Positions 10,545-13,421 of a stretch of DNA of 64,000 bases are shown here, piece by piece. A program made the translations under genes and the position numbers. Position 1 is the first letter of the stretch. The number at the start of each line of letters is the position of its first letter. A model generated the notes under the pieces. That model did not search any database. It had not been told where the DNA came from and saw only the letters and a list, made by a program, of their open reading frames with translations. The stretch is from an uncultured bacterium (lineage in GTDB: Bacteria; Actinomycetota; Actinomycetes; S36-B12), in the NCBI GenBank assembly GCA_963700255.1, contig CAVOWW010000029.1, positions 47,721 through 111,720 on the forward strand. The letters are read 5' to 3'.

Positions 10545-13421
10545 ATGAGCATGGAGTTCTCCTCCCGGCATATCGGTCCGGACGCTGACGAGCAGGAGCG
10601 CATGCTGGCGCTGCTCGGCTACTCCGACCTCGATGACTTCACTGCCGACGTGGTCCCGGAGGTCATCCGCTGGCACGAGGCGCTGGACCTGCCCGAGGCG
10701 GCGACCGAGGCCGAGACCCTCGCGGAGCTGCGGGAGCTCGCCGCCCGCAACCAGGTCGTCACCAGCATGATCGGGCTCGGCTACTACGGAACGCACACGC
10801 CCGGGCGTGATCACGCGCACCATCCTGGAGAACCCGGCCTGGTACACGGCGTACACGCCCTACCAGCCCGAGATCTCCCAGGGGCGCCTCGAGGCGCTGC
10901 TCAACTTCCAGACCATGGTCGAGGACCTGACGGCCCTCCCGGTCGCCGGCTCGTCGCTGCTCGACGAGCCCACGGCGGCGGCGGAGGCGATGACGCTGTC
11001 CCTGCGCGCGTCGAAGACCGGTGCCACCGTGTTCGTCGTCGACGCCGACACCCATCCGCAGACCCTCGCGGTGCTCCGGACGCGCGCGCAGCCGCTGGGC
11101 ATCACCTTGGTGGTGGCGGACCTCGACGCCGAGCTGCCGGTCGAGGGCGTGGCCGGGGTGCTGGTCAGCTATCCGGCGTCCTCCGGCCGGGTGCGCGACC
11201 TCGCGCCGGTGATCACGGCGGCACACGAGCGGGGCGCGCTGGCGATCGTCACGACCGACCTGCTCGCCCTGACCCTGCTCACCCCGCCGGGCGAGCTCGG
11301 CGCGGACGTCGTCGTCGGGTCCGCGCAGCGCCTCGGTGTGCCCTTCGGCTTCGGCGGTCCGCACGCCGGGTTCATGTCGGTCCGGGCCGGGCTGGAGCGG
11401 AGCATGCCGGGTCGGCTGGTCGGCGTCAGCGTCGATGCGGACGGCGCCCCGGCGTACCGGCTCGCCCTTCAGACGCGCGAGCAGCACATCCGCCGGGAGA
11501 AGGCGACGAGCAACATCTGCACGGCGCAGGTCCTGCTGGCCGTGATCTCGTCGATGTACGCCGCCTACCACGGTCCCCAGGGGCTCACGACGATCGCCCG
11601 CCGCGCGCATGACCGTGCCCGGGTCCTCGCGACGGGGCTGGCGGCGATGGGAGCCGTCGTCGACATCACGGACATCTTCGACACCGTGCGCTGGCGCGTG
11701 CCGGGCAGGGCCGAGGCGATCATCGACGCCGCCCTCGAGCGCGGCGTGAACCTGCGGCTCGTCGACGTCGACACGGTCTCCGCGTCCACGGACGAGACCA
11801 CCTCCGAGGCGGACGTGGAGCAGGTGTGGGCGGCGACCGGCGACGTGATCGGATCCTTCGCGCCGGCGTACGGCACCGTGGACGCGGCAGACGAGGTGGC
11901 CATCCCCGGCCACGCGCGTCGCACCTCGCCCTTCCTCACCCATCCCGTCTTCACGACGCACCGCAGCGAGACGTCGATGCTGCGCTACATCCGCCGGCTC
12001 GGAGACCGCGACATCGCCCTCGACCGGGCGATGATCCCGCTCGGCTCGTGCACGATGAAGCTGAACGCCACCACGGAGATGGAGCCGATCACCTGGGTCG
12101 GAGTTCGCGGGCATGCACCCGTTCGCCCCCCTCGACCAGGCCGACGGCTACGTCGACCTCATCCGCACGCTCGAGTCCTGGCTCGTCGAGGTCACGGGCT
12201 ATGACGCCGTGTCACTGCAGCCCAACGCCGGGTCCCAGGGCGAGTTCGCCGGGCTCCTCGCCATCAGCGCCTACCACCGGGCGAACGGCGATACCGGGCG
12301 CGACGTCTGCCTCATCCCGAGCAGCGCGCACGGGACCAACGCCGCCAGCGCGGTGATGGCCGGCATGCGCGTCGTCGTGGTCGCGTGTGATGACGAGGGC
12401 AACGTCGACGTCGATGACCTGCGAGCGAAGATCGAGGCGCACGCTGGCAGGCTGGCCGCCCTCATGGTGACGTATCCCTCGACGCACGGGGTGTTCGAGA
12501 CCGCGATCGGCGACATCTGCGCGATGGTGCACGAGGCGGGCGGGCAGGTGTATGTCGACGGCGCCAACCTGAACGCGCTGGTCGGGCTCGCCAAGCCCGG
12601 CAGGTTCGGTGCCGACGTGTCGCACCTGAACCTGCACAAGACCTTCTGCATCCCGCACGGCGGCGGCGGACCGGGCGTGGGACCGGTCGCGGTTCGCGAG
12701 CACCTCGCGCCCTACCTGCCGTCGCATCCGCTGCGGCCCGAGGCCGGTCCGGTGGGGCGTGGGCATGCGGACGGGGGAGTGGGGCCGGTCAGCGGTGCCC
12801 CGTGGGGGAGCGCGGGCATCCTGCCGATCCCGTGGGCGTACATCCGGATGATGGGTCCGGACGGCCTGCTCCGAGCGACCCAGACGGCGATCCTCAACGC
12901 CAACTACGTCGCGGCGCGCCTGCGCGATCACTACCCGGTGCTCTACTCAGGTGCCAACGGCCTGGTGGCGCACGAGTGCATCCTCGATGTCCGCTCGATC
13001 ACGGCGCAGACAGGGGTGACCGTCGACGACATCGCCAAGCGGCTGATCGACTACGGCTTCCATGCGCCGACCATGTCCTTCCCGGTGGCAGGCACGCTGA
13101 TGGTGGAGCCCACCGAGAGCGAGAACCTGTTCGAGCTCGATCGCTTCTGCGATGCGATGATCGCGATCAAGTCCGAGATCGACGCGGTTGCGGACGGGAC
13201 CTGGCCGCTCGAGGACAGCCCACTGCGCAACGCCCCGCACACGGCCGACTCCGTGATCGGTCCCTGGGAGCACGCCTATCCCGGCTCGGCTGGCGGCGTT
13301 CCCGGTCGAGAGCCTCCGGCAGGACAAGTACTGGCCCCCCGTGCGGCGCATCGACGGCGCGTTCGGGGACCGCAACCTGGTCTGCGCGTGCCCGCGGCCG
13401 GAGGAGCTGGCGGCACCGTGA
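10545..13421 (+). pseudogene. gcvP: glycine dehydrogenase (decarboxylating) P-protein, interrupted by three +1 frameshifts
   Basis: Conserved GcvP sequence is spread over four segments in three reading frames. Segment 1, 10545 to about 10802: MSMEFSSRHIGP...GYYGTHTP. Segment 2, about 10807-12096: [34 protein letters not shown]...EMEPITW. Segment 3, 12098 to about 13285: [14 protein letters not shown]...[19 protein letters not shown]...WEHAY. Segment 4, 13287-13421: [36 protein letters not shown], stop TGA. Each junction is one extra base in a C/G run. Confidence 0.85.

Follow-up and report, generated by a model that had tools for sequence, protein, structure and literature searches.

Has an uncultured actinobacterium lost the P-protein of its glycine cleavage system, or has the gene been damaged only in the assembly? 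The question is raised by gcvP, which lies at positions 10545 to 13421 on the forward strand of a 64,000-nucleotide stretch (the window) of contig CAVOWW010000029.1, with a G+C content of 71%. As the initial annotation noticed, this gene is broken by three +1 frameshifts while its glycine riboswitch and gcvH are intact, and either a very recent inactivation or an error of base calling or assembly was proposed. Our analysis kept the answer within these two readings and made the loss of P-protein the less likely one, because neighbouring genes are broken as well, selection has not relaxed, and long homopolymers are spared. We consider it probable (about 0.78) that indel errors of the consensus or assembly are concentrated in one local patch of the window. 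In the organism itself, gcvP is almost certainly whole and functional, under riboswitch control, and encodes a single-chain P-protein.

We traced the frames of gcvP by open reading frame (ORF) listing, by three-frame translation, and by a tblastn search with the orthologue carried by L001, a related contig described below. The three approaches gave the same four pieces, confirming that the conserved GcvP sequence can be read only in the frame order 0>1>2>0, each switch being +1. A single-chain GcvP, with PF02347 twice and PF21478, is expected to occupy one uninterrupted ORF of about 950 codons, and no such ORF is present in the window. The first segment (10545-10805, frame 0, by translation and tblastn) encodes residues 1-86, and the second (10807-12100, frame 1, also by translation and tblastn) residues ~88-518. 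The third (12102-13281, frame 2, by ORFs, translation and tblastn) covers residues ~519-912, and the fourth (13283-13421, frame 0, by translation and tblastn) residues ~913-957, closing with the stop codon TGA at 13419-13421. As traced, the pieces extended over 10545-10805 in frame 0, ~10801-12111 in frame 1, ~12101-13303 in frame 2, and 13281-13409 again in frame 0. The pyridoxal phosphate (PLP)-lysine motif was found within the frame-2 segment and is intact, as had been annotated; from the E. coli enzyme we take it to be the PLP site. Removal of one base at each of the three junctions yielded a stop-free GcvP of 957 amino acids, which is the length of its homologues and bears out the earlier estimate. 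At full length, this corrected protein shares 94-95% identity with its three closest homologues, metagenomic proteins of 957 residues (P0001-P0003) that carry PF02347 and PF21478, and its residues 5-951 align with the solved P-protein of Synechocystis (4LGL) at 1150 bits.

The closest homologues are located on two contigs, L001 (JGI, 390 kb) and L002 (ENA, 8.7 kb), both syntenic with the window and 86-88% identical to it in DNA. No copy from the same species was found in the collections searched, the best other matches being 95% for proteins and 83% for gcvP in genome and metagenome contigs. The relatives are all metagenomic, many of them long-read metagenome-assembled genomes (MAGs), and the lineage is known only from metagenomes. 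Positions 10255-18444 of the window (8.2 kb) were aligned three ways with L001 and L002. This alignment to the closest relatives, which had been suggested as a check, demonstrated that all three insertions in gcvP are unique to the window. Site A, on the forward strand at 10800-10806, carries one extra base in CCCGGG[C]GTG, where L001 reads CCCGGG-GTG and L002 reads CCCGGC-GTG; at this site the relatives have CCCGGGGTG or CCCGGCGTG in the three-way alignment. It coincides with the run cccggg (about 10800-10805) to which the initial annotation had assigned the first shift. Site B (12095-12101) also contains an extra base, most probably not at the run ggg of 12095-12097 as proposed, but a few bases downstream: the most parsimonious placement is an extra G in GTCG[G]AG at 12100-12101, with GGGTC-GAG in L001 and GGACC-GAG in L002. 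The relatives read TGG GTC GAG here, i.e. W-V-E. The earlier placement would give W-S-E-F and may still be correct, since the residue concerned varies among homologues, being V, T, S or P at this junction. Site C (13280-13284) has an extra C in TATCC[C]GG at 13280-13282, inside the range first given for the third shift (about 13280-13287), against TAT-CCGG in L001 and TAC-CCTG in L002. After correction the junction at site C, YPARLAAFP, equals the homologue consensus exactly, and that at site A, THTPGVIT, is the same as in the closest homologues.

The damage extends beyond gcvP, to breaks that the initial annotation did not mention. A gene for a NAD-dependent epimerase-like protein (14304-15298, forward strand), 0.9 kb downstream of gcvP, matched by tblastn in three frames, and DNA alignments traced this to three 1-bp indels found only in the window: the loss of a T after 15003, the loss of a C after 15018, only 15 nt from the first deletion, and the gain of a base at 15194. 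The corrected protein of 330 amino acids matches PF01370 and has the length and C-terminus of the L002 orthologue. Further downstream, junction alignment showed that the variable 3' tail of feoA (15349-15612, forward strand) has a net gain of 1 nt at ~15552-15568, by which it runs in frame and without a stop into feoB (ATG at ~15613). The resulting ORF, 15292-17499, is stop-free across feoA and feoB, which are separate in L001 and L002; the joining could be one more error of the patch, the seventh, or else FeoA and FeoB could be genuinely fused. Two genes between gcvP and the epimerase-like gene, both on the forward strand, are undamaged. One encodes a HAD_PNKP-type phosphatase (13418-13834, 138 amino acids, by tblastn and Pfam), whose GTG start overlaps the gcvP stop codon (GTGA). 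The other encodes a SHOCT-domain protein (13867-14235, 122 amino acids), with a single full-length high-scoring segment pair (HSP) in tblastn and 97.5% identity to L001; the SHOCT domain is a Pfam match of its L001 and L002 orthologues.

Counting these together, the window has seven indels of its own that alter a reading frame, three in gcvP, three in the epimerase-like gene and one in feoA, and all fall between 10.8 and 15.6 kb, i.e. within 4.8 kb. Over the same 8.2 kb of alignment, the indels private to L001 or to L002 fall without exception outside coding sequence. Outside the patch the window appeared clean. All 23 other genes held in common with L001 (window 1.5-24.9 kb) were recovered as single full-length tblastn HSPs, and about 40 ORFs at 17-64 kb had full-length Pfam matches, including MetH (1179 amino acids), a 910-residue helicase, PGI and the Pup-proteasome operon; altogether some 60 genes outside the affected ones are intact. 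A plot of G+C at third codon positions by frame, set against stop-to-stop ORFs, revealed no other unexplained frame switch in the window. An apparent extra switch at 47.07-47.25 kb turned out to be two adjoining genes, for a PD-(D/E)XK nuclease and a methyltransferase, and a 1-nt gap at 2258 is one part of a variable C-terminal tail that differs in length without leaving the frame. A uniformly high error rate was ruled out by the clean remainder of the window. The chance that six points fall within 4.4 of 64 kb is ~1e-5 by our own calculation; the clustering must therefore have a local cause.

The seven indels are located in runs of 1-3 bases. None of the 23 homopolymers of at least 6 bases in the window carries an indel, and the two of these inside gcvP, the C6 runs at 12126 and 13335, are unaffected. 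The description of each event as one extra base in a C/G homopolymer thus holds only for runs of 1-3 bases. With 0/23 long runs affected, we discarded as the specific cause both natural slippage in such runs and classical homopolymer miscalling, the signature of nanopore, 454 and Ion Torrent data. The absence of indels from long homopolymers argues for an error of low coverage or heterogeneity rather than for homopolymer miscalling. Another candidate was that the two alleles of a single-nucleotide polymorphism at a wobble position had both been written into the consensus. Sites A (GGG in L001, GGC in L002) and C (TAT and TAC) fit this idea, but the fit is not significant, since about two thirds of random insertions would adjoin a wobble base. 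Inspection of the seven indel sites by eye revealed no shared methylation-type motif beyond the ubiquitous CGG/CCG.

We then examined selection on the corrected genes, counting codon changes unique to one of the three close lineages (window, L001, L002) where the other two agree. For gcvP, the synonymous and non-synonymous changes numbered 105 and 10 in the window, 127 and 26 in L001, and 132 and 21 in L002. The corresponding counts for the epimerase-like gene were 20/5, 27/9 and 61/36, and those for feoB, taken as an intact control, 74/6, 88/12 and 84/18. The non-synonymous to synonymous ratio for gcvP in the window matches that of intact feoB and is lower than in both sister lineages. By codon position, the window-unique changes in gcvP were distributed 6/5/108 over positions 1, 2 and 3. 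When the window was compared with the two sisters and five outgroups, none of the GcvP columns that are identical in all seven of these carried a replacement unique to the window. Nonsense codons, larger deletions and other signs of decay were absent from the broken genes. These results show that purifying selection acted normally on both broken genes over practically the full length of the branch leading to the window.

We favour a patch of errors in the assembly because the indels are private to it, span three unrelated adjoining genes, come without decay, and give back the exact orthologue lengths (957 residues for gcvP, 330 for the epimerase-like gene) once corrected. On this account, single-base insertions and deletions in the consensus between ~10.8 and 15.6 kb would have hit gcvP, the epimerase-like gene and the end of feoA. 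The cause may have been a stretch of low coverage, strain heterogeneity that the assembler did not separate, or failed polishing of a metagenome-derived contig; the contig would probably be a long-read or hybrid one, in which 1-bp indels were left in the patch and the remainder was resolved correctly. Residual frameshifting indels are documented in nanopore MAGs, especially at low coverage (PMC9262707), and some catalogues of MAGs built only from nanopore reads have had just one round of Medaka polishing (PMC12313526); the window may stem from data of this type. Two further related contigs from ENA with Flye-style names ('contig_N'), L163 (2.0 Mb, break at ~5930) and L164 (69 kb, break at ~5935), also have gcvP split, by one +1 shift each, in short, GC-rich contexts that are not homopolymers.

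Several observations weigh against this conclusion. Seven indel errors within 4.8 kb would be extraordinary if the source assembly were made from Illumina reads only. The clean remainder of the window excludes a generally high error rate, and a local cause has to be assumed. The indels are not of the classical long-homopolymer type. Selection, too, would confine breaks to certain genes if those genes were truly dispensable. The HAD_PNKP and SHOCT genes, although inside the patch, are untouched; together they make up ~0.8 kb, which random errors would miss with a chance of ~0.3-0.4. Finally, gcvP and the epimerase-like gene together show insertions and deletions at 4:2, which fits the natural insertion bias reported for Mycobacterium smegmatis (PMC4938668).

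The leading rival is a genuine and very recent pseudogenisation, in which the 1-bp indels are fixed, the P-protein and the epimerase-like enzyme are lost, and the riboswitch, gcvH and the neighbours remain under selection. Breaks confined to the coding sequence of particular genes, with HAD_PNKP, SHOCT and some 60 others intact, and an assembly that is otherwise free of indels, including all homopolymers of at least 6 bases, speak for it. So does the excess of single-base insertions over deletions in M. smegmatis, an actinobacterium without MutS/L (PMC4938668). The same study provides an argument on the other side. Its mutation-accumulation lines had 856 substitutions against 207 small indels, 79% of the indels falling in simple repeats. 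Scaled accordingly, six neutral indels should come with about 25 neutral substitutions, of which two thirds would affect codon positions 1 and 2, and neither gene has an excess of non-synonymous or position-1/2 changes on the window branch. Under a Poisson/negative-binomial model, the probability of 17 or fewer position-1/2 changes, as observed, is 0.03 to <1e-4 when the baseline comes from intact genes and from the sister lineages (at least 15 expected changes), and 0.13 under the most lenient baseline. Pseudogenisation further requires that six separate indels struck two unrelated genes almost simultaneously and only recently, and that feoA received a seventh. The lack of stop codons and large deletions, the two deletions 15 nt apart and the sparing of slippage-prone runs also speak against it. 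We regard it as unlikely. A real burst of mutation, by which a freshwater or soil actinobacterium would just have lost both P-protein and epimerase-like enzyme, for example in a single error-prone repair tract of ~4.8 kb, is likewise unlikely in our view.

Two explanations that would keep the written sequence functional fared much worse. The first is recoding, by which the gene would be expressed through a programmed +1 shift of the ribosome, or through slippage during transcription, at each of the three sites. In its favour, sites A and C read CCC-G, on which a peptidyl-tRNA(Pro) might conceivably move its pairing to the +1 frame. Against such recoding, the orthologues are all single ORFs, unshifted at every one of these positions. 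A slippery codon is lacking at site B, and past the sites the 0 frame meets neither a stop nor a rare codon, staying open for 34-269 codons. Long A/T runs for transcriptional slippage are lacking, and the epimerase-like gene would in addition require shifts of -1, -1 and +1. Frameshifting of the prfB type was rejected, the shift being unconserved in orthologues and stall signals being absent, and recoding as a whole is extremely improbable. Just as implausible is a functional split into separately translated subunits in the manner of GcvPA/GcvPB. Two-subunit P-proteins do exist, as in Thermus thermophilus (1WYT), and the pieces have possible starts, GTG for ORF 10807-12204 and ATG for ORF 12113-13834. 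The natural boundary, however, lies at about residues 401-430, with subunit 1 of 1WYT matching residues 15-401 and subunit 2, from its residue 46, matching 474-875, whereas the breaks observed here (86/87, 518/519 and 912/913) are inside conserved domains. Each piece would moreover carry an out-of-frame tail, and the third is fused to the HAD phosphatase. The division into alpha and beta subunits was rejected on these break positions.

The regulatory leader and the H-protein gene are intact, as had been annotated. On the forward strand, glycine riboswitch aptamer 1 (10287-10375) matched RF00504 with 73.4 bits (gathering threshold 32) over model positions 1-94 of 94, and its equivalents in six relatives scored 75-78 bits. 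It is followed by an aptamer-2-like region, an expression platform and the Shine-Dalgarno sequence GAGGTG (10376-10544, forward strand), upstream of the ATG at 10545 and conserved in the six relatives. The leader, including its hairpin, aligns with these relatives nearly unchanged over its whole length, and the three-way alignment showed no window-unique indel in the part from 10376 to 10544. Aptamer 2 reaches the Rfam threshold (32-41 bits) in L002, L003, L005 and L008, and is below it in the window, L001 and L007. This clade of actinobacteria has a divergent aptamer 2, located at 10376-10482 in the window, 431-538 in L002 and 9836-9939 in L003. The gcvH gene (7251-7634, forward strand, 127 amino acids) gave a single full-length tblastn HSP, 95% identical to GcvH of L001, and the PF01597 match of its product covers profile positions 2-121 of 122 (E=1.9e-40). 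An intact riboswitch and gcvH are simply as expected of a working glycine-cleavage locus. Neither gcvT nor a second gcvP was present within the 64-kb window.

The order of genes from 5356 to 13834, DUF881-DUF1290-DUF881-gcvH-FHA-MerR-BFN-MerR-riboswitch-gcvP-HAD_PNKP, is common to L001, L163 and L164. In the neighbourhoods of the relatives the conserved order continues past HAD to the SHOCT gene. The order resembles the Rv1823-Rv1832 region of M. tuberculosis (gcvH-garA...gcvB). A Peptidase_S51 gene stands between MerR and the riboswitch in L001 (9040-9702), and is absent from the corresponding positions of the window (10227-10255) and from L002.

Other features of the window lie farther from the locus. 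A stretch of ~1.7 kb at ~18450-20150 is absent from L001; it contains a minus-strand ORF (18573-19171) that has no Pfam match, and a 193-residue ORF (19233-19811) that matches only the N-terminal cap domain of maltokinase (PF18085). The Pup-proteasome genes are all on the minus strand and were identified by full-length Pfam matches: two genes of the Pup-ligase family (39025-40395 and 42155-43684), one proteasome-subunit gene (41121-41951) and a proteasomal AAA ATPase gene (43684-45399). A TrmI-like tRNA methyltransferase gene (45412-47115, minus strand, full-length Pfam match) stands next to them, and the ORF at 40400-41341 among them gave no Pfam match.

What the locus means depends on which reading is right. 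If the indels are artefacts, they matter for data quality only. The extra base at site C, together with the GTGA overlap, creates ORF 12113-13834, which joins the C-terminal part of GcvP to the HAD_PNKP phosphatase. Its product is already in a public protein collection as P0121 (541 amino acids, 100% identity, one contig, in NCBI and ENA), a spurious fusion in that case, and carries PF02347, PF21478 and PF25109. Metabolic reconstruction from such a sequence would wrongly score glycine cleavage and the epimerase-like enzyme as lacking. If the loss is true, the window would be a snapshot of the first moment of glycine-cleavage loss, with the P-protein very freshly gone and the riboswitch and H-protein kept. 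It would be mildly informative on the order in which glycine-cleavage genes are lost, and would reveal no new kind of system.

Among known systems, the locus resembles the single-chain GcvP/GcvB of Actinomycetota under a tandem glycine riboswitch, in its full-length alignment, PLP-lysine motif, RF00504 leader and conserved neighbourhood, and differs from it in that the ORF as written is interrupted by three +1 shifts. With recent frameshift pseudogenes it shares a disrupted ORF, a retained regulatory leader and the lack of large deletions. It departs from them in having three indels per gene without substitutional decay or stops, in affecting two unrelated genes, and in avoiding slippage hot spots. 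To the frameshift-fragmented genes of long-read and hybrid assemblies it is alike in that the 1-bp indels are found in one assembly, lengths are correctable, selection is unrelaxed, and several adjoining genes are hit; here, in contrast to those genes, the indels are crowded into 4.8 kb, with the remainder of the 64 kb clean, and spare the long homopolymers in which such errors classically occur.

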